NCBI GenBank assembly: GCA_963626805.1
Contig: CAVFXS010000063.1
Location: 1,984 to 65,983 of the forward strand
DNA length: 64,000 bases
Reading direction: 5' to 3'
Source: Bacteroidales bacterium H4
Lineage (GTDB): Bacteria > Bacillota > Clostridia > Lachnospirales > Lachnospiraceae
In this document: piece after piece, positions 1 through 12,816 of the stretch
Layout of the letters: each line of letters starts with the position of its first letter
Numbering within the stretch: the first letter of the stretch is position 1
Program-made: the position numbers and the translations under genes
The notes under the pieces: model-generated
The model's database searches: none
What the model was told of the DNA's origin: nothing
What the model saw: only the letters and a program-made list of their open reading frames with translations

Positions 1-1
1 T

Positions 2-613
2 CAACGAGAACCGGAGACGGTTGAAACGGGAGATTCAGACAATAAGCGCGAAAATTTAAACGATCATCTCGGAAACATCGATATTATTAAGCGTCCCGAA
101 AGAACTCCGTCAAAAGGTTTCTTCTACGGAAAGGGCGATGAAGGCAGCACTGAATCAACAAGCACTAAGGGGACTTTGGGCTCGACAGGTGATCCTGGAT
201 TAAGAATCTTAAAAGGAAAGCGTAAAAGAAAAAAACTTGATTCGCATCGCGGTCTGCCAGATCCAGAAGGAAAAGATGTGGTAACGCAAAAGAAACCAGG
301 AGGGGAATCCAACTGTCCTTTGAAGAATGTTCGTATCATAAAAAAGAGCACTGGTATGTATTCTGTCAATTTTGAAATACCACACGATGTGGATTATGGA
401 AGGATTGAGCTTGTGACGGTTGGCGAAAATGGGAAATCGAATCGAATTCACATTAAAAGTGCCGAGTCTGCCGGTGGCTGCAAAAGTGCCAAAAAGAGCG
501 GAGATTATATAGAGGCCGAGGGCTTATCATCCTCAAACAAAGTTAAAATTGCAGTACAGCTTGCTGACTCAAGGGATTATGCTATGGAGGTAAACGTTTA
601 TGAACATAACTAA
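2..613 (+). CDS. Hypothetical protein, C-terminal part only (ORF open from the window edge); first visible gene of a 3-gene operon
   Basis: Frame 2 has no stop from nt 2 to TAA at 611-613, so the listed 176..613 ORF is only the tail of a longer protein. The next gene's start overlaps its 3' end. No family recognised. Confidence 0.6.
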   Translation, partial: QREPETVETGDSDNKRENLNDHLGNIDIIKRPERTPSKGFFYGKGDEGSTESTSTKGTLGSTGDPGLRILKGKRKRKKLDSHRGLPDPEGKDVVTQKKPGGESNCPLKNVRIIKKSTGMYSVNFEIPHDVDYGRIELVTVGENGKSNRIHIKSAESAGGCKSAKKSGDYIEAEGLSSSNKVKIAVQLADSRDYAMEVNVYEHN

Positions 614-1478
614 TAGACTGTTTGCCTATCCGGTACTTAGCGATGAAAAGGCTGATTATAAGGAATCGATATTCAACGTTGATTTCGAACAAGCTATGCA
701 GGGTGTCAACAGCTTGCAGCTTAATTTTGACATTGCGATGAATTGTCGAGAACTGCAAGAGATGATCTTAAATGGTCAGGCAGAATATGTCATCCATTTG
801 GAGTGCACTACAACTGCATACAGAGAAGTCCTGCATTCAGTTTCAAAACATATAGAACACATCATCCCAATCAGCAGAATCAACGGAACATTGGATGCCG
901 TGGCATTTGTAATTCTAAAAAAGCGTATATCGAAATTTTACAGTTCTGACTGGGTGGAAGACTTTGATGGCATGACATTTGATTTGTTTCAGGGGTCGAT
1001 ATTAGCATATCAAAATTTGACAAGCCTTGATATCACAAAGGATTATGAGGAATTCACTAATGCTGGTTCAATCTTCTCGATTTACAAGAGAATCACTGAC
1101 GAGGATAAGCCAGCGGAGATAATGCTCGATTCAGCTAAAATTAGAATAGGCCTTGGCAGCCATGATTATGATGTTTATTCGGTCTATTCTGCGAAAACAG
1201 AGTTACAATCACTCTTCCATTCAATGCTGATTTTACCGGCGCTGGTATATGTGTTTGAAGAACTAAAGCAAGACGATGGAGAAGAAACTTATCATAACAA
1301 AGAATGGTTTTTGGCTTTGGAGAAATCCTATGCTAAAAGAGGAATGAGATTCATGGATGAGGTTCTTAATAGCGAAAAGACTTCATATCAACTCGCTCAG
1401 GAGGCGATGGAACTTCCATTAACTAAGGCACTAAACCAAATTCCGATATTCTTTGACACTACAGAGGAGGACTCGTGA
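600..1478 (+). CDS. Hypothetical protein (292 aa), middle gene of the 3-gene operon
   Basis: ATG at 600 preceded by GGAGG (586-590). It overlaps the upstream ORF by 14 nt and the downstream start. No recognisable motifs. Confidence 0.7.
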   Translation: MNITNRLFAYPVLSDEKADYKESIFNVDFEQAMQGVNSLQLNFDIAMNCRELQEMILNGQAEYVIHLECTTTAYREVLHSVSKHIEHIIPISRINGTLDAVAFVILKKRISKFYSSDWVEDFDGMTFDLFQGSILAYQNLTSLDITKDYEEFTNAGSIFSIYKRITDEDKPAEIMLDSAKIRIGLGSHDYDVYSVYSAKTELQSLFHSMLILPALVYVFEELKQDDGEETYHNKEWFLALEKSYAKRGMRFMDEVLNSEKTSYQLAQEAMELPLTKALNQIPIFFDTTEEDS

Positions 1479-2524
1479 TGAAATTGTACATAATGAAACG
1501 AGATGCTCTGGAAACATTAAAAGCTAATCTACCAGCAGTCTACGGAAAATACTATACAGAGAAATCTAATAAGTGGATATGTGACATTTGTGGCGAAGAT
1601 CCGTTTATTGAATTTAAGGATGTGACCGAGTTTACATTGGCAAGCTTAAACTCGGATCTGACACCAGGTGAAATAGACCTTGAAAATTGCAAAATATTAT
1701 ATGAAAAGCTGATGTTTCTAAGCGAGTCGCAGGCAAGTGACGAGAGGCTGTGGGCAGGACTTACACATGCAACATTTTATGAATACATGAGAGAGCGCTG
1801 GGGATACGGGCATGGAAAAAAGCCGAAGAGTGCTGAGAAAGAAGTCGGAGCTATCCAGACGAGGTTTTTTTATAAGAACTCAGGCAGGAGTGGATTTTAC
1901 AGGAATACACTTTCAAAATGCTGGTGGGTTGGTCATAACACATATAATCCCAATAATGCAAGCAATCATTTTGAAAGTTTAGATATTATTGGTAGTAATG
2001 ACCTTAACTCAAAAATCAATGAATTCTTTTATAACTTTACTTTTTCTTCAAATCCGGAAGTTATGTCTGCAATTATTGAGGCGCTTAGGGTATTCAAGGA
2101 AGAAGGAAAAGCTCTTTCTGTAAGAAATCATATTCGTCCGGCAATGTCATACCTGAACGCGGTTGGAGGCTCAGTGGTTATAGATTGCCTATCTAAGGAA
2201 GAAATAACAAGCATTTTTTCAGATGCTATTGTTGCTATTATGCAGGGAGATACGCCTTCGTTGAATCTGGATGGTGGCATAGAAGAAGACATTGACTATT
2301 CAGTAGATGACGAATCCACCCCTGGAGAAGAACCGGATGAGCCAGAAGTAATATTGGGATGCAAGGTCGTTATTCGAAATGAACATAACGAAACCAAAAC
2401 ATACAAATATGATTTAATGAATGGTACTTTACCTAAAGCACTTGAAGTGTTCACAGGCCATAAAGCAGGAGATGTAATAGAGATGCTTGGGTGCGAGTGG
2501 AAGATAGAAGACGTGATTTTTTGA
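1478..2524 (+). CDS. Hypothetical protein (about 348 aa) with a GreA/GreB C-terminal-like tail
   Basis: ATG 1478 (or GTG 1475) overlaps the TGA of the previous gene, with GGAGG at 1466-1470. The C-terminal ~60 aa (VILGCKVVIRNEHNETKTYKYDL...GHKAGDVIEMLGCEWKIEDVIF) follow the GreA C-terminal domain pattern as I remember it. The N-terminal ~280 aa are not recognised. Confidence 0.7.
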   Translation: MKLYIMKRDALETLKANLPAVYGKYYTEKSNKWICDICGEDPFIEFKDVTEFTLASLNSDLTPGEIDLENCKILYEKLMFLSESQASDERLWAGLTHATFYEYMRERWGYGHGKKPKSAEKEVGAIQTRFFYKNSGRSGFYRNTLSKCWWVGHNTYNPNNASNHFESLDIIGSNDLNSKINEFFYNFTFSSNPEVMSAIIEALRVFKEEGKALSVRNHIRPAMSYLNAVGGSVVIDCLSKEEITSIFSDAIVAIMQGDTPSLNLDGGIEEDIDYSVDDESTPGEEPDEPEVILGCKVVIRNEHNETKTYKYDLMNGTLPKALEVFTGHKAGDVIEMLGCEWKIEDVIF

Positions 2525-2840
2525 TAAATCGTACGGCGTGTATTTGAGAAGTTGATTGACCTGTTTCCGCATACCTTTATAGGGCAGACCAGTTTCCTTC
2601 ACGCTTGACATCAATGGTGGCGTCTCGGGGCAAGAGCAACCACTCTGTCGAGCAAAGCGAGAGCAGAACTTCCGTAGATTATTTTGTGCCACGAGTGCCA
2701 AGCACGAATCCTTATTTCCTGGGCTTTTAGGAACTTTGCATCTGGCTTTAACAATCAAAGTACAATTTCAATCCTAAAATGGAAAGTCAGACTGTGAATT
2801 GAATGTTGGGAAAAAATAAAGAAGAATGGGAAGAGATGTT

Positions 2841-3251
2841 ATGCAGCACGAATGCAGGATAACAGTTCTGGAAACAAAGGTATTCCCGGAACTGCAGGAA
2901 AAATATCTGGCTGATCCAAAGTCAGGACCGTGTCCCTGCTTCAAGGCAGGCGATACATTCTTATTAAAGAGAACGCCACAGCAGGATGATTTCTATCATC
3001 TGATGAACGGCAAGTTCTGCGGTGAGGCGTGGGACGCAGTGAGCCGATATGTCTATACCGCTTTGCAGGGCGGCTCCATCATGCATGGCTGGACAAATGA
3101 CGAGCGCATGATGATTACCTGCTGCAATGACGGGACAAGACCTGTCATATTCAAAATAGAAAGAATCGACATCCCGGAGAGTGAAGAAGAAAGGCTATGG
3201 CTGGAGACACAAAATTTCAAGAACACTGCGGAGGATGCTTATACGGGATAA
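2841..3251 (+). CDS. TIGR04076-family small Cys-rich protein
   Basis: Pattern ITVLE...GPCPCFKAGDTF...FCGEAW...ITCCNDGTRPVIFKIERI matches my recollection of TIGR04076 proteins. The start could be 2826 or 2841. Confidence 0.6.
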   Translation: MQHECRITVLETKVFPELQEKYLADPKSGPCPCFKAGDTFLLKRTPQQDDFYHLMNGKFCGEAWDAVSRYVYTALQGGSIMHGWTNDERMMITCCNDGTRPVIFKIERIDIPESEEERLWLETQNFKNTAEDAYTG

Positions 3252-3278
3252 AAGAATCAGGATTTCAGGAGGTTGGCA

Positions 3279-3803
3279 ATGAAGATTGTAATCATAAATG
3301 GAAGTGCAAGAAAGGGAAACACATTAACAGCGATTCAGGCATTTACTGAAGGCGTCGCAGAAGGCAATGAGATAGAAATCATCGCACCAGAAAAGTTAAC
3401 TATTGCTCCATGTAAAGGCTGCGGAGTCTGTCAATGCAGCAAGGGCTGCGTAGATCAAGACGATACGAATCCGACCATAGATAAAATCGTTGCAGCGGAT
3501 GTGATTGTATTTGCCACACCGGTTTATTGGTGGGGAATGTCAGCACAGCTGAAGCTCATCATTGATAAATGCTATTGCAAGGGGCTCCTTCTGAAAAATA
3601 AGAAGGTCGGTGTCCTTGTTGTCGGAGCTGCTCCGGTCGGCAGCATCCAGTATGAACTAATCAATAAGCAGTTCCAGTGTATGGCAGATTACCTATCCTG
3701 GAATATGCTGTTTCAGAAATCCTATTCTGCAAGCGGCAGAACAGACCTAAGCCATAATACAGATGCTATTGCTGAACTAAAGGAACTTGGTTTCTGCTTA
3801 TAA
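3279..3803 (+). CDS. Flavodoxin-family / iron-sulfur flavoprotein-like NAD(P)H-dependent FMN reductase
   Basis: N-terminus MKIVIINGSARKGNT, a CxxCxxC-like cluster (CKGCGVCQCSKGC), and VFATPVYWWGMSAQLK typical of this family. GGAGG lies 6 nt upstream of ATG 3279. Confidence 0.7.
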   Translation: MKIVIINGSARKGNTLTAIQAFTEGVAEGNEIEIIAPEKLTIAPCKGCGVCQCSKGCVDQDDTNPTIDKIVAADVIVFATPVYWWGMSAQLKLIIDKCYCKGLLLKNKKVGVLVVGAAPVGSIQYELINKQFQCMADYLSWNMLFQKSYSASGRTDLSHNTDAIAELKELGFCL

Positions 3804-3822
3804 ACAAGGATAGGATTGAATT

Positions 3823-4863
3823 ATGAATGATATCGTTAAAAGAAAAGATGGAGAAGTGGAAGCTGTCGATAATAAGGTCATGCAAATAACACCGGAGACA
3901 GCAGACATAAATTTTGAAGATGTGCTGGCAAAATTGACGCAGTATGTGAATGTAGCAGATGCAATTTTTCATGTTGAGAAAACGGTAGAATATGTCGTAC
4001 AAATACCGCTTAAATACAAGGATGCTTTTCAAACTGGAGAGGTATTTATCAATCAAAACCAAAAGACTGGTGTAATGTGGCCCACATTGTATCGTACCTT
4101 AGATTCAGGGAAAAGACAGTTTGTTGATAATATGCCGATAAAACCTGAGCAGCTTACTCAAGGTAATCCATTTGAAAGCATGGCAATCAGCTATCATAAT
4201 TTGTATATGCAGCAGCAAATAAATAATCTTGCAGAGGTTATGAATCAAACCTACAAGGTTGTTGAGCGCATCGAACAAGGCCAATTAGATGATAGGATTG
4301 GACTACTGATTGCGGGTAGGGACCAGGTATTGTTGGCATTGCACTCTGCCCCGGAAAATAGGATTTTAGCTATTGAACAGGGGCGCAGTAATATGCTTAT
4401 AGCACAGAAACAGCTTCTTCAGACATTTAAGCGTAGGGTTGAAAATTTCGATCTTATTCCAGAAAGCGGATGGAGCAGATTTTGGCTTGAATTTAAACAT
4501 AGTGGGACGTTTAAACAGAGGGACAAGGAGTTTTCGGATATTCAAGAATACTATTCTTTATATCTTCAAGCTACGCAAATGGTGGCAGCGTCATACGCAA
4601 TAAGTGGTGAAATAGAGGCGGCTCAACAGGTGTTTGAAATAGCTGAGCAGGACATGAAGGAGATTAATTTTGATGCTATAAAAACGCTTGGGTTCATTCA
4701 TAAAAATAATTCAGAGATGTTATATAACCACGCTGACGAATATGTGGCAGTCGAACGTGAAATATGCATGAATGAGGCACAGGAATATGATGCCATAAAT
4801 ATTGAAATCAGTGGTGCCAAATTATTGGAGGTATTTGAAAATGAAAGAACAAAAAAGATTTAA
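3823..4863 (+). CDS. Hypothetical protein (346 aa), unknown family
   Basis: Long ORF beginning 19 nt after the flavoprotein stop. Its 3' end overlaps the start of a small TM ORF. The C-terminal half looks largely helical; no catalytic motif recognised. Confidence 0.7.
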   Translation: MNDIVKRKDGEVEAVDNKVMQITPETADINFEDVLAKLTQYVNVADAIFHVEKTVEYVVQIPLKYKDAFQTGEVFINQNQKTGVMWPTLYRTLDSGKRQFVDNMPIKPEQLTQGNPFESMAISYHNLYMQQQINNLAEVMNQTYKVVERIEQGQLDDRIGLLIAGRDQVLLALHSAPENRILAIEQGRSNMLIAQKQLLQTFKRRVENFDLIPESGWSRFWLEFKHSGTFKQRDKEFSDIQEYYSLYLQATQMVAASYAISGEIEAAQQVFEIAEQDMKEINFDAIKTLGFIHKNNSEMLYNHADEYVAVEREICMNEAQEYDAINIEISGAKLLEVFENERTKKI

Positions 4864-5026
4864 GACCCAGAAACTTGATAGTAAGGACTATGAGAAGACA
4901 GAAGAAGGGGCAAAACTATTGAAGAACGGTGGCTTGGTATTGTCTGCCGTGGTCTTTGCTGGTGGAGTAATCAAAAAATGCGGACCTAAGATATTAAAAG
5001 GAATAAATGTAATTCGTAAAATTTGA
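4841..5026 (+). CDS. Small single-pass membrane protein (61 aa)
   Basis: ATG 4841 lies 9 nt after GGAGG (4827-4831) and overlaps the upstream gene by 23 nt. It has a charged N-terminus followed by the hydrophobic segment GGLVLSAVVFAGGVI. It ends 13 nt before the methyltransferase start. Confidence 0.55.
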   Translation: MKEQKRFKTQKLDSKDYEKTEEGAKLLKNGGLVLSAVVFAGGVIKKCGPKILKGINVIRKI

Positions 5027-5039
5027 GGAGGCACTGCCG

Positions 5040-6533
5040 ATGTATGCACAAGCAGCGATAAAAAGAAATATCATACCTCGTAACGGTGCATACCGTATCG
5101 TTAACAGGGATGTGCATTTTTGCACACCCCCGTGTTCATCGTTACGGAGTAAGAAACACACTTCGTTAGGTCGTATCACTTTAGACACGGCAACCGAGCC
5201 GTGTATAGGTAGTGGTGCGTTCTATTCTGCACTTTTGAATACGGTGGATAAAAAGACCATTCTAAATGCCACAGGGATTGAGATTGATTCAGAGTACTAT
5301 GATTGTGCGAAAAAGCTTTGGGAAGAATCCGGTATTGAATTGCTCCATGGGGACTTCACAAGAATAACACCAAACAGTAGATACAATCTGGTAATTACAA
5401 ATCCTCCATATGTCCGACACCATTACCTTACAAAAGAAGTCAAGGCATATTTAGCAAAAACTGAGAAAGATGAAATAGGGATAGCTTTATCTGGCTTAGC
5501 AGGGTTATATTGCCATATTATTTTATTAGCTCATAAATGGCTTTCACCGAATGCAATTTGTGGATGGCTGATACCAAGCGAATTTATGGATGTAAACTAC
5601 GGAAGTGCGATAAAGGAATATCTCCTCAATCATGTTCACCTTCTCAGAATACACAGGTATAACCCCGAATCTTCAATGTTTTCAGATGCGTTGGTCTCTT
5701 CATGTGTGGTGTGGTTCAAAAACGAAATTGTCGAAGAAGACTATGAAATCGAGTTCTCTTTAGGAGGCACTCATGATGTGCCTATGATGAGTAAGCTGAT
5801 ACATAAGTCAGATTTGATTGCTGAGAGAAAATGGACGCGTTTCCCAGAAAAGCAGATTCGAAGTAATGAAACTTCTAATGCTACGTTGGGTGATTTTTTT
5901 GAAATCAAACGGGGTCTCGCAACTGGCGACAACAGTTTCTTTATCATGAGCCACGACAAAACACAAGAGCTGGGCCTTGATATGTCGCTGCTAAAGCCAA
6001 TTCTGCCGAGTCCAAGATATTTAAAGACGGATCTCGTCAACTCAGATGACAATGGAATGCCACAAATTGATCAACAATACTTTTTGTTGGACTGCGATTT
6101 GCCGGAGCAAGAACTTGAGAAGGACTATCCCACTATATGGAGATATTTGCAGAGTGGAATAGATACGACAAGCAAAAAATATCTATGTAAGACCAGAAAA
6201 ATATGGTACTTGCAAGAACATAGAGATGCGACATATTTCTTGTGTTCATATATGGGGAGAGGTAAGGAGCATGACTTGCCGGTTAGATTTATATTAAACC
6301 TATCGGAGGCCATTGCCACTAACTCATATTTGATGCTATATCCCCAAAAAGGCTTACAAGAAATCATATCAGCCAACCCAAGATCTGTTTACAAAATATG
6401 GGAAGCACTGAAGAGTATTAATGGTAGTGAGATTGAAGAAGAAGGTCGCATTTACGGCGGTGGGTTAAAAAAAATTGAGCCTAGGGAATTAGCTAAGGTT
6501 TCATGTGATGATCTAGTGCGCATTTGCACATGA
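5040..6533 (+). CDS. N6-adenine DNA methyltransferase, gamma class (Eco57I/TaqI-like)
   Basis: FxTPP-like motif (HFCTPP), motif I EPCIGSGAF, then motif IV ITNPPYVRHH in gamma-class order. A long C-terminal target-recognition-like region follows. GAGGAGG lies upstream of the ATG. Confidence 0.85.
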   Translation: MYAQAAIKRNIIPRNGAYRIVNRDVHFCTPPCSSLRSKKHTSLGRITLDTATEPCIGSGAFYSALLNTVDKKTILNATGIEIDSEYYDCAKKLWEESGIELLHGDFTRITPNSRYNLVITNPPYVRHHYLTKEVKAYLAKTEKDEIGIALSGLAGLYCHIILLAHKWLSPNAICGWLIPSEFMDVNYGSAIKEYLLNHVHLLRIHRYNPESSMFSDALVSSCVVWFKNEIVEEDYEIEFSLGGTHDVPMMSKLIHKSDLIAERKWTRFPEKQIRSNETSNATLGDFFEIKRGLATGDNSFFIMSHDKTQELGLDMSLLKPILPSPRYLKTDLVNSDDNGMPQIDQQYFLLDCDLPEQELEKDYPTIWRYLQSGIDTTSKKYLCKTRKIWYLQEHRDATYFLCSYMGRGKEHDLPVRFILNLSEAIATNSYLMLYPQKGLQEIISANPRSVYKIWEALKSINGSEIEEEGRIYGGGLKKIEPRELAKVSCDDLVRICT

Positions 6534-6680
6534 TGCATCTTAAAATGCAGTGTCGTATCTCTTAGTGGGCGTATACTTCTTTGCAATGTTTGGGCTCTAT
6601 CTCTTATCAATTTGTTGTCCGCACAAGGACATTCGTCGCTAAGAAGTTAAGACTCTCCTAATCCGGAAGGGGCTGATACC

Positions 6681-7562
6681 ATGAGACGCATTTGGAACAA
6701 CAAAAAATATATTGTGTCAAGAGCCACTGCATTTACAGGTAGCGCATATGCCATGTTGGGCTTTGTTGGAACACTTGTACCTTTAGACGAATGTCTACCG
6801 AACTCTATGCCTATGTTAATGCGTGTCATTATCAGCGCAGCAGTATTGATATGCGTATGGCTTGTTTTCTTCATCGGAGCATCATTGTATGTTTTATGTA
6901 AAAATAAGGTTTGCGTGCTTTCAGCTAACAATGGTCATGCCTTATATCTTCAATATGGAGACATATTTAGTGCTGAGGAAGTTGCAAATCCTGGTATACG
7001 TCGGAATATTGTAATTCCAGTCAACCGGTGCTTCGATACTCATGTAGACAATCAAATTGTTTCCGAACAAACTCTACACGGAATGACTTTGAAAAGGCTT
7101 TATTCTTCTGGAATGTTTACAGAGGAAAGCCTGTCCAGCCTAATAGAAACCCGTTTGTTGCAAGAGAAATGCGAGAATCTTTCAAGCTCTGACAAGCCTG
7201 CTGGAAAGCTCAAGCGATACCCTGTTGGAACCATCGTCGATGTGGCCGGAGTTGATGGAGAGCATTATTTTCTTTGGGCGTTAAGTACATTCGACAGCAA
7301 CTTGAAAGCACACACAACGATGCAGGATTATACATTGGCTGTGCAGAAATTGATCGAAGCGTGCAATTCAGAATCGGAAGGATTTCCAATAGTTTTGCCG
7401 CTTGTTGGAACCGGACTTTCTAGGATAAAAAAGGACCAATGTGATGTCCTTCGGTATTTGATTAATGCTTTCAGATTAAACAAGGCGGAAATCAATTCCG
7501 ACATTCACATTATCATTCGGGAAGAGTTAAAAGACGAAATTGCTATTATGAGCATTAAGTAA
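6681..7562 (+). CDS. thsA: ThsA-like effector: two N-terminal TM helices plus a Macro-like domain (type II Thoeris)
   Basis: Two hydrophobic helices (AFTGSAYAMLGFVGTLVPL; VIISAAVLICVWLVFFIGASLYVL). The C-terminal region (NIVIPVNRCFDTHVDNQIVSEQTLHG...VLPLVGTGLSRI) resembles the ThsA-type Macro domain. A TIR-like gene follows immediately. Confidence 0.6.
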   Translation: MRRIWNNKKYIVSRATAFTGSAYAMLGFVGTLVPLDECLPNSMPMLMRVIISAAVLICVWLVFFIGASLYVLCKNKVCVLSANNGHALYLQYGDIFSAEEVANPGIRRNIVIPVNRCFDTHVDNQIVSEQTLHGMTLKRLYSSGMFTEESLSSLIETRLLQEKCENLSSSDKPAGKLKRYPVGTIVDVAGVDGEHYFLWALSTFDSNLKAHTTMQDYTLAVQKLIEACNSESEGFPIVLPLVGTGLSRIKKDQCDVLRYLINAFRLNKAEINSDIHIIIREELKDEIAIMSIK

Positions 7563-7572
7563 GGAGGTCAAA

Positions 7573-8094
7573 ATGGCAACTTATAGAACTCGGACTTATA
7601 TTGCTGGCGATTGGGATCACGATAAAGATGCCGTGGATCAGCTACACAAATGGAATGACAGCAACTATTGGAATCTTCATTTTACCGATGCACACGACCT
7701 GACATCCTCAAGAGATAGCAGCCTTAATTGCACAATCAAAGCTTCTCTAAAAACACGCATGGACGCATCTAATACGTTTGTGCTGATTGTCGGAGATCAA
7801 ACCGATTCAATTACTGCTGGCGGTTGTCAATGGTGTAGAAGCTACAACAGTAATGGCCGATACTGTGTAAGAGAACATAGCGTTGACTATAGAAGCTATG
7901 TTAAGTTTGAATGTGACAAAGCAGTTGATGCCGGAATTAAAATAATAGTCCTATATAACGACACAAAGATTGATAGGACAAAATGCCCTGATGCCGTTAG
8001 GTATCGAGGAACTCACACTGCCATGGTTTATAAGGGCAGCGATGGCAAGTACTATTGGGATTATCAATCCGTAAAGAATGCTTTTGATGCATAG
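7573..8094 (+). CDS. thsB: ThsB-like TIR-like (DUF1863-type) protein
   Basis: YIAGDWDHDKD...NLHFTDAHDL...FVLIVGDQT...YVKFECDKAV...IIVLYN matches the DUF1863/ThsB TIR-like pattern, including a candidate catalytic Glu. AAGGAGG RBS; the start is 10 nt after the thsA-like stop. Confidence 0.7.
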   Translation: MATYRTRTYIAGDWDHDKDAVDQLHKWNDSNYWNLHFTDAHDLTSSRDSSLNCTIKASLKTRMDASNTFVLIVGDQTDSITAGGCQWCRSYNSNGRYCVREHSVDYRSYVKFECDKAVDAGIKIIVLYNDTKIDRTKCPDAVRYRGTHTAMVYKGSDGKYYWDYQSVKNAFDA

Positions 8095-8123
8095 AAGCAT
8101 AGAATAAATAAAATACCGTACTC

Positions 8124-8159
8124 GAATCCGTCTATCTTCATAGGTAGGCGGATTTTTTG
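8124..8159 (+). terminator. Rho-independent terminator after the TIR-like gene
   Basis: Hairpin GAATCCGTCTA...TAGGCGGATT (with G-U wobbles) followed by a run of six T. Confidence 0.6.
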
Positions 8160-8186
8160 TTTCCCAAATCCAAGGAGGTAACGCCC

Positions 8187-9419
8187 ATGCCAAACTACAA
8201 ACCCATCATCCCGCCGGAGCAGCAATCAGAGAAAGAAAAGAAGCTGCTGGCTGAACGGGAGCGCATCGACACCAAGCTGACCTATCACAAGCACCGGCTC
8301 AAGGCGCTTGAGCATGAGGAAGCGGAGCTTGTAAGGAAAGCCCGCAACCATCGCATTTTCACCCGTGGCGGTATGCTGGAGTCCTTTCTTCTGAAGCCTA
8401 CATTGCTGTCAGATGATCAGGTGCATTCGCTGCTGAAAATCATATTTCACAAGCCGGAGATCAACAAAATCCTGAATCACATGATCTCCATTGAGCCGCC
8501 TGTAGAGGAAGAACCGGAGCTTCCAGCGGATGTGCCGCCCGATCCGGCAATTTCGGAAGAAGCACGCAATGCCTTTGGTTATACGGATGATGCTATGCTT
8601 CCGCTGACGAAGGAGCGTGCCATGGAGCTATTTGAACGGGATGTCCCCGTATATCTGCTTTACGGAGACAATACTGAGGCGATGGCATTTGAACACACCG
8701 AGATTCTGAATCATGACGGCATCTTCGGAATTGACCGTGCGGACTGGGAGGCAGTCAAGGAGCAGTTCCCGATTGCTACGGAAAACAAGTGGCAGAAAGC
8801 TTTTCTGGAGAATCCTGCCGACAGCTATTGCATCTATCAGCTGAAGCGAACTGATGAAACGGCGGAGCTTCTTTTTATGAGCAGCAATTACCTGAAGGAG
8901 CACAATCTGGATATTTCCTATGAAAACTACGATGCGGTTTACTCCGGCGCTTTTTCCGGAAGTGATGATAACCCTACGAAAACGCTAGATGATCTCTACA
9001 TGAAGTTCAATACAGATCGCCCACAGGACTTCACAGGGCACAGCCTGTCCGTCAGCGACATCGTAGCGCTCAGGCAAAACGGCGTGGTATCCTGCCATTA
9101 CGTGGACAGCGTTGGATTTGCTGATGTGCCTGCTTTTCTTCCGGAGAATTATCTCAAAAATGCGGAGATGGCGATGGAGGATGACTACGGCATGATTGAC
9201 GGCATCATTAACAATGGCTCGAAGGAACAGCCGGAATTCAAGGCAAAAGTGCCTGATCTGACAGCACTTTTTGAGGAGGCAAAGCGTACTGTGCAGGAGT
9301 ACAAGGCTTCCCATGATGATGGAAGAAAGCAATCTGTCATAGCAAGGCTCCACACACCGACACCGCCCAGAAACGACAAAACAGCGCAGACGAAAAGCGC
9401 GGAAAGGGATTTACTATGA
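8187..9419 (+). CDS. Conjugative-element-associated protein (YodL / DUF3849 / DUF4316-like)
   Basis: N-terminus MPNYKPIIPPEQQSEKEKKLL and the overall composition resemble proteins carried on clostridial conjugative transposons. GGAGG lies upstream of ATG 8187. Confidence 0.5.
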   Translation: MPNYKPIIPPEQQSEKEKKLLAERERIDTKLTYHKHRLKALEHEEAELVRKARNHRIFTRGGMLESFLLKPTLLSDDQVHSLLKIIFHKPEINKILNHMISIEPPVEEEPELPADVPPDPAISEEARNAFGYTDDAMLPLTKERAMELFERDVPVYLLYGDNTEAMAFEHTEILNHDGIFGIDRADWEAVKEQFPIATENKWQKAFLENPADSYCIYQLKRTDETAELLFMSSNYLKEHNLDISYENYDAVYSGAFSGSDDNPTKTLDDLYMKFNTDRPQDFTGHSLSVSDIVALRQNGVVSCHYVDSVGFADVPAFLPENYLKNAEMAMEDDYGMIDGIINNGSKEQPEFKAKVPDLTALFEEAKRTVQEYKASHDDGRKQSVIARLHTPTPPRNDKTAQTKSAERDLL

Positions 9420-9634
9420 TGAATTTTACGAATGACGAGCTGAATCTCATGTGCATCTACAGTGCCGGAGGAAACCGAGCTGATCTGGTGGAGAAGCTTA
9501 CGGAAATGAAGCATTATCTGGAAAAGGATGAAACAGAGCTGCTGACGCTTACAGAATCGGCACTTGAAAAGCTCTCTAAGATGAGCGATGAGGAATTTGA
9601 GAAGCTGGAGCTTTATCCGGATTTTGATGTGTGA
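9416..9634 (+). CDS. Transposon-transfer assisting family protein
   Basis: MNFTNDELNLMCIY...ALEKLSKMSDEEFEKLEL matches the remembered family consensus. ATGA overlap with the upstream gene. Confidence 0.7.
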   Translation: MMNFTNDELNLMCIYSAGGNRADLVEKLTEMKHYLEKDETELLTLTESALEKLSKMSDEEFEKLELYPDFDV

Positions 9635-9640
9635 TTTTTC

Positions 9641-9680
9641 TATTCCGAAATAAGGTGCAAGCGCACCATATTTCGGAATA
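9641..9680. repeat. 40-nt compound hairpin element, copy 1
   Basis: TATTCCGAAATA-A-GGTGC-AAGC-GCACC-A-TATTTCGGAATA: a perfect 12-bp outer stem enclosing a 5-bp inner stem. Confidence 0.8.
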
Positions 9681-9696
9681 GCTAAAACAATGAATA

Positions 9697-9734
9697 CTTT
9701 TGTCTCAAAAACTATATAGAATTTGAGACAAAAG
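9697..9734. repeat. Perfect 13-bp inverted repeat (CTTTTGTCTCAAA / TTTGAGACAAAAG) with a 12-nt loop
   Basis: Read directly; lies between hairpin copies 1 and 2. Confidence 0.8.
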
Positions 9735-9762
9735 CGATGAGATTGAACTGAAAAAATCCAAT

Positions 9763-9802
9763 TATTCCGATATCAGGTGCAACCGCACCCGTTCTCGGAA
9801 TA
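9763..9802. repeat. 40-nt compound hairpin element, copy 2
   Basis: TATTCCGA-TATCA-GGTGC-AACC-GCACC-CGTTC-TCGGAATA. Confidence 0.8.
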
Positions 9803-9818
9803 AAAAAGCCTTCCCCCA

Positions 9819-9848
9819 TTGACTATTACACTGAATATTGGGTATAAT
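9819..9848 (+). promoter_or_regulatory. SigA-type promoter for the AAA ATPase gene
   Basis: TTGACT (9819-9824), an 18-nt spacer, then TATAAT (9843-9848). It sits between hairpin copies 2 and 3. Confidence 0.55.
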
Positions 9849-9849
9849 A

Positions 9850-9889
9850 TATTCCGACATCAGGTGCAACTGCACCGGTTTTCGGAATG
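9850..9889. repeat. 40-nt compound hairpin element, copy 3 (in the 5' UTR, abutting the RBS)
   Basis: TATTCCGA-CATCA-GGTGC-AACT-GCACC-GGTTT-TCGGAATG. It is followed directly by the GGAGGG RBS and ATG 9901. Confidence 0.8.
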
Positions 9890-9900
9890 GAGGGTGCATT

Positions 9901-11154
9901 ATGGAAATCAAACGTGATGTTTATCTGGATAAGTTGATTCGGAAAAAGAAAAATGGACTGATAAAAGTAGTGACGGGTGTAAGAAGATGCGGAAAATCAT
10001 ATCTGCTGTTTCATCTTTTTCATGATCATCTGTTAGACAGCGGTGTTGCAGAGGATCATATCATAGAAATAGCACTCGATGACCGTAGCAATAAAGAGCT
10101 GCGCGACCCGGATGTCATCTTAAAGTTCATAAAGGAAAGCATAAAGGATAAAGAGGATTATTATATTATTCTTGATGAAGTTCAATATCTGGACGAATTT
10201 GAAGATGTCCTCAATAGCCTGCTGCATATTCGCAATGCGGATGTGTATGTAACGGGCAGCAATTCCAAATTTCTCTCGTCTGATGTGATTACTCAGTTCC
10301 GTGGACGGGGAGACGAGATTCGCGTCTATCCTTTAAGCTTTTCCGAATACGTGTCTGTGTACCAGGGTTCGCAGGATGAAGCGTGGGATGACTATCTTGT
10401 TTATGGTGGTCTGCCGCTCATCTTAACAATGGAAGAAGCCGAGGACAAGGCAGAATATCTTACTTCACTGTTTCAAAAGGTTTATATCTCAGATATCGTT
10501 GAGCGACACAATGTACGAAACAAAGCGGAGCTGGATGAACTGGTAGATGTCCTTGCATCTGCGATAGGAAGCTATACGAACCAAAATAAGCTTGTGCGGA
10601 CATTCAAAAGTGTTAAGAATAAGAATATCAGCGATAAGACGATTAAGAATTATACAGACTATCTGATAGATTCGTATCTTATCAGCAAAGCGGATCGCTA
10701 TGACATCAAGGGAAAGAAATACATTGGAAAGCTGTCAAAGTACTATTTTGAAGATGTAGGACTAAGAAATGCAAGATTAGGCTTCCGTCAGATTGAAGAA
10801 ACGCATTTGATGGAGAATATTATCTACAATGAACTAAGGGTTCGAGGATATCATGTGGATGTCGGTGTGGTGGAATATTATGAAACCAAGGCCGACGGAA
10901 AACGTGGAAAGAAGCAGTTGGAGGTGGATTTCGTTGCCACAAAAGGAAGCGAGAAGTATTATATTCAATCTGCTTTTGCACTTCCGACCGCAGATAAAGT
11001 AAATCAGGAACAACGAGGGCTTTTGAGTATTTCGGATTTCTTCAGAAAAATTGTTGTTGTTGGGGATAATATTAAAGTGCGCCGCGATGAAAACGGAATT
11101 ATTACAATCGGACTGAGGAATTTTCTGCTGGACGAAAATAGTCTGAAACTGTAA
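9901..11154 (+). CDS. AAA+ ATPase with a DUF4143-like C-terminal domain
   Basis: Walker A GVRRCGKSYLL, Walker B IILDEVQ, and a C-terminal region typical of DUF4143 ATPases. The part of the listed ORF upstream of ATG 9901 (9838-9900) covers the promoter and hairpin, so ATG 9901 is preferred. Confidence 0.8.
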   Translation: MEIKRDVYLDKLIRKKKNGLIKVVTGVRRCGKSYLLFHLFHDHLLDSGVAEDHIIEIALDDRSNKELRDPDVILKFIKESIKDKEDYYIILDEVQYLDEFEDVLNSLLHIRNADVYVTGSNSKFLSSDVITQFRGRGDEIRVYPLSFSEYVSVYQGSQDEAWDDYLVYGGLPLILTMEEAEDKAEYLTSLFQKVYISDIVERHNVRNKAELDELVDVLASAIGSYTNQNKLVRTFKSVKNKNISDKTIKNYTDYLIDSYLISKADRYDIKGKKYIGKLSKYYFEDVGLRNARLGFRQIEETHLMENIIYNELRVRGYHVDVGVVEYYETKADGKRGKKQLEVDFVATKGSEKYYIQSAFALPTADKVNQEQRGLLSISDFFRKIVVVGDNIKVRRDENGIITIGLRNFLLDENSLKL

Positions 11155-11182
11155 TCAACAAATTTATAGAGCATATCATTTT

Positions 11183-11218
11183 AGAGCATCGGTCTTAACG
11201 GACTGGTGCTCTTTTTAT
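11183..11218 (+). terminator. Rho-independent terminator after the ATPase gene
   Basis: AGAGCATCGGTC / GACTGGTGCTCT stem (two G-U wobbles) followed by TTTTTAT. Confidence 0.55.
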
Positions 11219-11246
11219 GTCCATTTTGCGAAAGGAGAACTGATCT

Positions 11247-11363
11247 ATGGCAAGTAAATTGCAGGAATACCGACGCATGTCGGAGGAGGCGCAGCGTCAG
11301 CTGACGGGCAGTCTGGAACGCTGGCAGTCCTTCCTGAAAACAGCATCGCGGCTGTATAAGTAA
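11247..11363 (+). pseudogene. Truncated N-terminal fragment (38 codons) of an ArdC-like / ICE large-protein gene
   Basis: AAAGGAGA RBS and ATG 11247. The peptide ...ERWQSFLKTASRLYK* resembles the start of ArdC-type N-terminal domains but stops after 38 aa. Confidence 0.4.
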
Positions 11364-11406
11364 CCTGATTCAGAATATTGTTTCCCCAAGCGATGATTCA
11401 GAGGAA

Positions 11407-11835
11407 ATGGCGCCGGAACAGAGACAGAAGCAGATTGATGAAGTGAAACAATATGTGGAAGAGCTTCGAAAAGAAAATCCGAAGGTGGCGGACATTATGA
11501 CTACCTTGATTGAAGAGATTGAGCAGGATGAGAATAAGTACCGGGGGCAGTCGATTTATAATATAGTAGAAAATATGAAGAAAGACTGCATTGAAAAAGT
11601 AGTAACGGATTTCTGTGTTACCTGGTATACATCAAAAGAGGATGTGATGTATGCTGCTATGCATTATCGAAACGGCGAGATTCCAAATGAGAATGCAATT
11701 AAGATGACTGCAGATTTTACCAGTTATAAGTCAGTACAGGAACATGCGATTCCAAAGTTTAAATATTATACATTGTTAATATCTGAACTTCGAAAGACTT
11801 TGGAGGAAGAGATTAAACCACTTGTGAATCATTGA
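11407..11835 (+). CDS. Hypothetical 142-aa protein, possibly the C-terminal remnant of a larger (restriction-enzyme-like?) gene
   Basis: The reading frame is open upstream of the ATG back to the preceding fragment's stop region, and no clear RBS is present. The helical charged composition recalls C-terminal regions of type I HsdR proteins, but that is only a weak recollection. Confidence 0.35.
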   Translation: MAPEQRQKQIDEVKQYVEELRKENPKVADIMTTLIEEIEQDENKYRGQSIYNIVENMKKDCIEKVVTDFCVTWYTSKEDVMYAAMHYRNGEIPNENAIKMTADFTSYKSVQEHAIPKFKYYTLLISELRKTLEEEIKPLVNH

Positions 11836-11889
11836 TTATTATTTTTTACTGTTTATATCAGCGTAAGCAGCTCAGGATGGAGGTAGCTT

Positions 11890-12816
11890 ATGATAAATGA
11901 TATGAAGAGTGAAAATTTGTTTTGTGACTATTACAGACAGTGGATTGAGGTCTATAAAAAAGATGCAATTCGCGAAGCAACCATGGCAAAATACCGGATG
12001 ACACAGAAGTGGATAGAGAAACTGGTTCCTGATTTAAAGGTGTCAGGGCTTACTCGGACGGCATATCAACAGCTTTTAAATGATTATGCAAAGGAACATG
12101 AACGGCAGACAACCCTTGATTTTCATCACCAGCTAAAGGGTGCAATTCTGGATGCTGTGGATGAAGGATTATTAGAAAGGGATCCAACCAGAAAAGCAAT
12201 CATTAAAGGTAAGACACCAAAGGCCAAAAAGGTCAAATATCTGAATCAGTTTGAATTGCATACGTTAATTGCACATCTTGAAATCAAGGAGCAGGTGAAT
12301 TGGGACTGGTTTATTCTCCTGGTGGCAAAGACGGGAATGCGTTTTTCTGAGGCACTTGCGGTTACTCCGGCAGATTTTGATTTTGCAAGACAGACCTTAT
12401 CGGTAAATAAAACATGGGATTATAAGGGCAAGGGAGGTTTTCTTCCGACTAAAAATAAATCTTCGGTAAGAAAGATACAGATAGACTGGCAGATAGTGGT
12501 TAAGTTTTCGGAATTGGTTAAGAATTTACCGGAGGACAAGCCTATTTTCGTAGGGAAAGAAAAGGTGTATAATTCCACGGTGAATGGTATTCTTGCAAGG
12601 CATTGCAAAGAGTGTTGTATCTCTGTGATTTCGATACATGGACTGCGTCACACACATGCGTCGTTATTATTATTTGCAGGAGTCACGATTGCCAGTGTTG
12701 CAAGGCGGCTGGGGCATGCAAGCATGACAACAACGCAGAAGACATATCTGCATATTATTCAGGAGTTGGAGAATAAAGATGTAGATCTGGTAATGAGAAC
12801 TTTATCAGGATTATAA
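11890..12816 (+). CDS. Tyrosine site-specific recombinase / integrase
   Basis: Catalytic signature GMRFSEAL (Arg), HGLRHTHASLL (HxxR) and LGHASMTTTQKTYLH (His...Tyr). An N-terminal SAM-like domain is present. Confidence 0.85.
   Translation: MINDMKSENLFCDYYRQWIEVYKKDAIREATMAKYRMTQKWIEKLVPDLKVSGLTRTAYQQLLNDYAKEHERQTTLDFHHQLKGAILDAVDEGLLERDPTRKAIIKGKTPKAKKVKYLNQFELHTLIAHLEIKEQVNWDWFILLVAKTGMRFSEALAVTPADFDFARQTLSVNKTWDYKGKGGFLPTKNKSSVRKIQIDWQIVVKFSELVKNLPEDKPIFVGKEKVYNSTVNGILARHCKECCISVISIHGLRHTHASLLLFAGVTIASVARRLGHASMTTTQKTYLHIIQELENKDVDLVMRTLSGL

Follow-up and report, generated by a model that had tools for sequence, protein, structure and literature searches.

A PDC-M33 cassette at the edge of a clostridial defense island: a catalogued candidate system with a putative GHKL ATPase and transcription-related modules

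Identity and extent of the cassette

At the left edge of a 64,000-nucleotide (nt) stretch of contig CAVFXS010000063.1 (the window), three overlapping genes on the + strand, here called A, B, and C, precede a series of defense genes. The initial annotation could assign none of the three products to a named family and read the set as a candidate uncharacterized anti-phage or conflict system. What is this gene set, and what might it do? The first question has a direct answer. The gene A fragment matched the PADLOC profile PDC-M33A (E = 1.2e-22, profile positions 433 to 626 of 627), gene B matched PDC-M33B (E = 2e-86, positions 1 to 287 of 289), and gene C matched PDC-M33C (E = 3.2e-122, positions 1 to 344 of 346). 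These were the only PADLOC matches of A, B, and C, and since the genes are adjacent and on one strand, the PADLOC gene rules identify them as PDC-M33. Residues 67 to 247 of C also match the Pfam family DUF6339 (PF19866) with E = 3e-52 and 177.3 bits, against a gathering cutoff of 23.2. Pfam, NCBIfam, and PHROGs hold no family for A, B, or a small protein encoded upstream of A, and NCBIfam and PHROGs returned nothing for any of the three products. As to function, the evidence as a whole is best explained if PDC-M33 is a defense candidate whose proteins form a GHKL-driven complex aimed at transcription, a reading that we consider fairly probable from the sequence comparisons described here.

The reading frames and start signals were reproduced as first annotated. 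Open reading frame 1 (ORF1; 2 to 613, + strand) is the 3′ part of gene A; it comprises the last 203 codons, ends with TAA at 611 to 613, and is open from nt 2, so that gene A is cut by the window edge. Gene B (600 to 1478, + strand) runs from ATG 600 to TGA 1476 to 1478 and encodes 292 amino acids (aa). Gene C (1478 to 2524, + strand) runs from ATG 1478 to TGA 2522 to 2524 and encodes 348 aa, or 349 aa from the alternative start GTG 1475. ORF1 and ORF2 overlap by 14 nt, and ORF2 and ORF3 overlap by 1 nt, ATG 1478 sharing its A with TGA 1476 to 1478. Direct reading of the + strand places a GGAGG ribosome-binding site at 586 to 590, 9 nt 5′ of ATG 600, and another at 1466 to 1470, 7 nt 5′ of ATG 1478. 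A scan for promoters and terminators found nothing exceeding shuffled expectation. The annotated picture of a translationally coupled operon, truncated by the window and lying in a defense island on a mobile element, is thus supported.

The whole operon was recovered from a metagenome contig (L003) that was reached through a 97%-identical C protein, an exact-protein look-up having given only 2.3-kb contigs. When window positions 1 to 6000 were compared with the collected loci by blastn, L003 was 96.8% identical in nucleotides to window positions 1 to 2580. It carries all of gene A (642 aa), followed by B and C. The A fragment of the window is identical to the C terminus of L003 A at 200 of 203 residues, and full-length L003 A matches PDC-M33A with E = 1.3e-187 over profile positions 1 to 626. 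A (via this full-length relative), B, and C therefore match PDC-M33 end to end, and the view of the system as uncatalogued falls. We conclude that the locus is an intact, ordinary member of the catalogued PDC-M33, cut only by the window edge. L003 and a second locus, L004, align with the window over positions 1 to 2580 only. Nucleotide homology to both ends 56 nt after the C stop codon (cassette end, 2525 to 2580), which marks the cassette as a discrete mobile unit.

A search with the A fragment returned short, cut proteins only, none of them full length. Two short metagenome proteins, P0012 and P0019, match the C terminus of A (54 to 73% of the query, 71 to 73% identity) and also match Bro-N (PF02498) or AIPR (PF10592) in Pfam; they may be gene-call chimeras or rearranged copies.

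The cassette itself is already known, and the novelty lies in its mechanism. Entries of the PDC class are unpublished, unvalidated candidates (PMC11811056). The PDC-M33 database entry has the same three full-length profiles, gene order, and coupling as the window, and the core is identical. The entry lists three genes, with no description, domains, or validation. Beyond these three, most loci have a small gene upstream, and in one clade a large fifth gene follows downstream. The PDC “M” series presumably goes back to Millman et al. 2022. The preprint text of Millman 2022 does not name the PDC-M33 cassette, and no description of it was found in the literature on GHKL, MORC, or GreA proteins in anti-phage systems.

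A scan of one genome per species with an alignment of C gave 51 loci with gene C, mostly in Lachnospiraceae and other Clostridia, with one in an Acholeplasmatales and one in a Spirochaetaceae metagenome-assembled genome. The order A-B-C on one strand was found in 51 of 51 loci wherever the contig reaches, down to approximately 30% identity. The three-gene arrangement is therefore far from chance, and co-occurrence of the three genes is conserved across genomes. The same order is present in five plasmid loci (Priestia, Planococcus, Arthrobacter, Paenarthrobacter, and Deinococcus), which span Bacillota, Actinomycetota, and Deinococcota. It recurs in one IMG/VR contig and in NatCom_9291, a complete temperate phage of [Clostridium] innocuum, where it comes immediately after the integrase. 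A homologues occur on Ligilactobacillus megaplasmids; for a Lactococcus lactis plasmid, the sequence examined ends inside B, before C. A link to the Lactococcus Abi systems, raised by the homologues on L. lactis plasmids, was rejected, as PADLOC gave PDC-M33 matches only. Searched among 1.84 billion representatives, the B profile matched 2,251 clusters at 50% identity, nearly all of them stand-alone proteins of 280 to 300 aa.

The cassette decays in some genomes. L020 has a stop codon inside A (5221 to 6918), and the C genes of L011 (8001 to 8468) and L024 (8001 to 8717) are truncated. In the Deinococcus plasmid locus L066, A is annotated solely from an internal start (4501 to 6375).

More genes upstream of A had been considered possible, and one was found. 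A gene for a helical protein of approximately 74 aa ends 5 to 33 nt before A in 29 of 65 loci and occurs in four more plasmid loci; examples lie at 4986 to 5210 in L023, 1907 to 2131 in L063, 5728 to 5958 in L064, and approximately 4230 to 4480 in L066 to L069. The consensus of the protein is ...KF-x-R-x-AE-x-R-x-x-x-I...L-x-GN-x-SN-x-x-x-Y-x-Y...ELK...KF, which matches no known family in Pfam or PHROGs. Its spread over Deinococcota, Actinomycetota, and Bacillota indicates an ancestral operon of four genes. The lineage of the window (L003, L004, L008, L014, and L017) has an HTH_3 (helix-turn-helix) gene of the repressor type in its place; in L003 this gene encodes 84 aa and ends 55 nt upstream of A.

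A putative GHKL ATPase and an acidic partner

In full-length A, an N-domain and a middle region are followed by a disordered linker, Gly-rich and basic (KGKRKRKK), and by a beta-rich C-terminal domain that contains a GENGK motif. Of these, the window holds the end of the linker and the C-terminal beta domain; the N-terminal and middle domains lie outside it. In alignments, four motifs of the N-domain are invariant or almost so over three phyla: R35-E36-x-x-Q39-N40-S-x-D43-A44 (motif I), D115-x-x-T118-x-G120 (motif II, which reads D-x-N-T-x-G and deviates from D-x-G-x-G), G157-x-x-G160-x-G162-(K) (motif III), and G235-T236-D237 (motif IV). The middle region conserves R348, G351-M352, E385, H389, W392, and R396.

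Aligned with hhalign, the N-domain of A pairs with that of Escherichia coli HtpG over 195 columns (pairwise E = 0.0024, probability of 12%), and the HtpG segments ELisNasDA, ISDNGvGM, GQFGVGFYSAF, and rGTeI fall opposite the four motifs of A. MutL aligned with E = 0.0043. HtpG was the best non-family match among 673 decoy ORFs with filters off. These alignments, with motifs I to IV in order, make it probable that A is a GHKL (Bergerat-fold; Hsp90/MutL/MORC-like) ATPase. Counting against the assignment, it fails every database-wide significance test. Pfam HATPase_c_3 was matched by 1 of 29 A members (E = 0.12), as was NCBIfam sacsin-N (E = 0.55). Searches of A profiles against the Protein Data Bank (PDB) with E up to 10 gave three chance matches for profile A3 and none for profile A7, with no GHKL chain in either case, and sequence and profile searches of the PDB with full-length A and its N-domain found nothing meaningful.

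The closest known designs are the prokaryotic MORC and paraMORC proteins and GHKL-Shedu (VcSduA), which, like A, have N-terminal Bergerat motifs I to IV followed by a middle domain. A resembles them also in lying in defense islands, often beside restriction-modification genes. Unlike the known conflict GHKL ATPases, A has no useful score against Pfam HATPase_c or HATPase_c_3 and no fused nuclease, and its partners (B, the DUF6339 protein, and the small upstream protein) are unrelated to the helicase and nuclease partners of MORC systems. In VcSduA, a GHKL domain is able to control an anti-phage effector (PMC12137116).

Protein B is strongly acidic (net charge, −22). Among 193 sequences, down to 24% identity, it conserves P11, Y20, H66-x-E68-C69-x-x-T72-x-x-R75, S157, P213, W236, Q267, and P273. 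It has no match in Pfam, NCBIfam, PHROGs, or the PDB.

Transcription-related modules of protein C and of a fifth gene

Protein C is built of a mostly helical DUF6339 core (residues 1 to 257), an acidic linker (258 to 290, net charge −14), and a tail (approximately 291 to 348). An AlphaFold2 model of C had a mean predicted local distance difference test score (pLDDT) of 88 and a predicted template-modeling score (pTM) of 0.84, with the linker disordered at residues 265 to 284 and the tail elements in the order beta-beta-alpha-beta-beta. A Foldseek search of the model against the PDB and BFVD gave no match at an E value of 0.001 or better, which indicates that DUF6339 has a fold without a detectable solved counterpart. 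A relationship of C to GmrSD-N/DUF262 was dropped, the Foldseek match being weak (E = 1.0). Polar residues of the core kept across homologues down to 28% identity are K15, N70, E83-S-Q-A-x-D88-E89-R90-x-W92, R107, and R129; R142-N143, W149-W150, D175, R220, and D236 are kept as well.

The tail (VILGCKVVIRNEHNETKTYKYDL...LPKALEVFTGHKAGDVIEMLGCEWKIEDVIF, encoded at 2348 to 2521 on the + strand) had been likened in the initial annotation to the C-terminal domain of GreA. Across C homologues the tails can be aligned as a single family, and 11 of 20 match Pfam GreA_GreB (PF01272) over profile positions 5 to 76 of 77, the only Pfam family matched by most tails. The best match (E = 3e-06, 27.6 bits) exceeds the gathering score of 26.9, which one tail does. 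Searched against the PDB, the tail profile found E. coli GreA best (1grj, residues 80 to 142, E = 0.0087), with Gfh1 at E = 0.9, and hhalign aligned the tail with E. coli GreA at a probability of 82% (E = 1e-5) in the register first proposed. The likeness thus stands for the tail family and fails for the tail of the window taken by itself. On these alignments, the Gre-likeness of the C tail is real at the family level.

Compared with GreA, GreB, Gfh1, and Rnk, the tail aligns to GreA residues 77 to 141 with the same order of elements and has in common with GreA the signature S/L-P-x-A/L-x-x-L/F-x-G-K/H-x-x-G-D-x-V/I. It differs from Gre factors in being approximately 15 to 20 residues shorter, in being joined by an acidic disordered linker to the unrelated DUF6339, and in being optional. 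The N-terminal antiparallel coiled coil of Gre factors is not found in C, where DUF6339 and the linker precede the tail; lacking this coiled-coil finger, C can have no transcript-cleavage activity. GreA, GreB, Gfh1, and Rnk, the characterized carriers of this domain, are known to bind the secondary channel of RNA polymerase. The tail is absent in many lineages and replaced in L041, which excludes it as the mechanistic core. The C protein of L041 (7383 to 8432) has different last ~50 aa (KKGCVWIHRTFGRCVVIDVKDDTVRVQFADGKVRPMS...) with no match in the PDB or Pfam; reading that tail as a PcrA/UvrD-type Tudor domain was dropped for want of a PDB sequence match.

A clade with tail-less C proteins has a gene for a protein of approximately 1,100 aa on the same strand 3′ of C (L049 to L052 and L054 to L057; for example, L052 8749 to 12039). 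The gene starts 14 to 23 nt after C in at least 7, and probably 8, of the 10 tail-less loci, L049 being the doubtful one. An N-terminal zinc ribbon was recognized in its product, together with matches to the C-terminal domain of the RNA polymerase alpha subunit (alpha-CTD; E = 3.4e-09, with more than 20 entries) and to the helix-turn-helix of sigma-70 region 4 (E = 2e-4); approximately 600 C-terminal residues have no assigned domain. Among the loci examined, this gene and the Gre-like tail never occur together. Judged from these profile matches, this pattern raises the idea of a system that may be aimed at, or may mimic, the transcription apparatus.

Neighborhood, proposed role, and alternatives

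The surroundings first described for the window (a Thoeris-like pair, a DNA methyltransferase, remnants of an integrative and conjugative element, and an integrase) were confirmed at 5040 to 12816. They comprise a type II N6 methyltransferase (5040 to 6533), the Thoeris genes ThsA-Macro (6681 to 7562) and ThsB-TIR (7573 to 8094), a YodL/DUF4316/DUF3847 conjugative-element protein (8157 to 9419), a PDC-S01 AAA_14/DUF4143 ATPase (9838 to 11154; PADLOC E = 7e-120), and a tyrosine integrase (11890 to 12816). Between the cassette and the methyltransferase lie ORFs of 141 aa (2826 to 3251) and 346 aa (3823 to 4863), neither with a Pfam or PADLOC match, and between these two an FMN reductase-like gene (3273 to 3803). 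Thoeris (6681 to 8094) is a multigene cassette like PDC-M33 and shares its island and mobile element, but the two have no common domain and are separated by approximately 4 kb of unrelated genes, and PADLOC profiles found no ThsA or ThsB homologue within the A-B-C operon; Thoeris is a separate system. The PDC-S01 ATPase is a second catalogued, unvalidated candidate in this island. One PDC-S01 representative gave no protection in a cold-seep study (bioRxiv 10.1101/2024.09.26.614923).

In the contexts inspected, the cassette nearly always adjoins restriction-modification or other defense genes. Its neighbors elsewhere include BanI/DpnII, Sau3AI, AlwI, and Dcm/Vsr restriction-modification, Shedu, Fic, HsdR-N, integrases, and transposases, and each context inspected had neighbors from among restriction-modification, Thoeris, Shedu, PDC-S01, integrase, or transposase genes. 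Such company is a guilt-by-association signature, short of proof. Together with the travel of the cassette on integrative elements, plasmids, and temperate phages, it makes defense of the host or the element against phages or other invading DNA the likeliest role. In the mechanism that we propose, A, B, and C would form a complex in which A serves as an ATP-driven dimerizing clamp or switch, as other GHKL proteins do. Two variable modules, namely, the Gre-like tail and the alpha-CTD/sigma-4 protein, would direct this complex to the transcription apparatus or imitate components of that apparatus, and infection might be sensed or blocked at RNA polymerase or on transcribed DNA. Candidates for the effector activity are the polar residues conserved in B and in the DUF6339 core. 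From the alignments of the tail we infer that it may contact RNA polymerase. A bolder version, in which PDC-M33 would be a new class of immunity with a divergent GHKL complex whose swappable transcription-derived modules either dock onto RNA polymerase or lure phage proteins that hijack it, and thereby trigger a B/DUF6339 effector, seems unlikely to us.

Several results weigh against a complex aimed at transcription. A, B, and C yielded no sign of a nuclease, NADase, pore, or other recognized effector domain. Full-text literature searches for DUF6339 and PDC-M33 found no paper, and no experimental work on the family came to light. The alpha-CTD and sigma-4 modules are also general DNA-binding modules. 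For the tail of the window itself no PF01272 match appeared, whether the search used the whole protein (E up to 1) or just the tail (E up to 10). No Gre factor, and nothing significant, is among the top 50 Foldseek matches of the whole C model; the best short ones are the N-terminal domain of TrmI and Tudor barrels, at E above 0.4. Against 77 Pfam positions the tail has 58 aa and is without the approximately 15-residue middle insert of GreA. C proteins of 237 to 260 aa without any tail occur in the L048 to L057 clade and on plasmids of other phyla.

These features of the tail are what one would expect if the GreA likeness were that of a generic small beta-barrel, common or convergent, used for contacts among A, B, and C or with nucleic acid, in a complex that may be defensive and would never touch RNA polymerase. 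This account is in line with the opposite charges of the linkers (acidic in C, basic in A), which suggest electrostatic contacts in the complex, with the absence or exchange of the tail in many lineages, and with structural neighbors that are TrmI and Tudor barrels rather than Gre factors. It does not sit easily with the specificity of the sequence evidence for GreA_GreB, where one tail passes the cutoff and both GreA and Gfh1 appear in the PDB list, nor with the binding of the characterized domain carriers to the secondary channel of RNA polymerase, nor with the other gene of RNA polymerase-derived modules in tail-less lineages. We regard the generic barrel as a serious but somewhat doubtful alternative to a transcription-directed complex.

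The methyltransferases near the cassette raise another possibility, that PDC-M33 is a restriction-modification accessory in which a MORC-like GHKL module on DNA would work with the adjacent methyltransferase or endonuclease, or sense modification, without being self-sufficient and without a role at RNA polymerase. On five plasmids (Priestia, Deinococcus, Paenarthrobacter, Arthrobacter, and Planococcus; L064 and L066 to L069) the cassette directly adjoins a C5 cytosine methyltransferase, which is often accompanied by Vsr or a type II endonuclease; such a methyltransferase also lies 2 to 6 kb downstream in 9 of the 10 loci of the tail-less clade (L048 to L057). In phage NatCom_9291 the cassette is likewise followed by a methyltransferase, and in the window one is found 2.5 kb downstream. 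Prokaryotic MORC-type GHKL ATPases were reportedly described within restriction-modification operons by Iyer, Abhiman, and Aravind in 2008. The C5 methyltransferase adjacency could be a functional link or mere clustering in defense islands, which place restriction-modification genes beside almost anything. When six methyltransferases were used as queries against flanks of up to 8 kb, only 13 of the 51 genome loci had a methyltransferase-like match, and type, strand, and distance varied. Moreover, homology ends 56 nt after C, so that A-B-C moves without the methyltransferase, and an accessory role appears quite unlikely. We hold it to be similarly improbable that the cassette serves its mobile element rather than host immunity, whether as an addiction or exclusion module, as a regulator of transcription in the element or the host (a Gre-like or anti-Gre complex), or in superinfection exclusion confined to related elements. 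It is true that every copy lies on an integrative element, plasmid, or prophage, near integrases, that its modules of transcription-factor origin (the Gre-C tail, the alpha-CTD/sigma-4 gene, and the upstream helix-turn-helix) would suit a regulator, and that it holds no recognizable toxin or nuclease. However, four large or conserved proteins, including an ATPase, exceed the usual needs of a regulator, and the Gre-like tail comes without the N-terminal coiled coil on which Gre activity depends. Moreover, restriction-modification, Thoeris, and Shedu genes as consistent neighbors are the signature by which defense is predicted, and the PADLOC authors listed the cassette on such grounds.

PDC-M33 matters as a large family. 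Its B proteins form more than 2,000 clusters at 50% identity, at least three phyla contain it, and in gut Clostridia it is carried by phages, plasmids, and integrative elements, yet the literature searched holds no description of it. Its gene set, including the upstream gene and the clade-specific fifth gene, its candidate catalytic residues, and its natural tail-less variants are now defined. Should PDC-M33 protect against phages, a system without a recognizable effector and with a divergent GHKL motor would join the known ones, and its Gre, alpha-subunit, and sigma modules would point to transcription as a site for the sensing or blocking of infection, which studies of bacterial immunity have seldom addressed.

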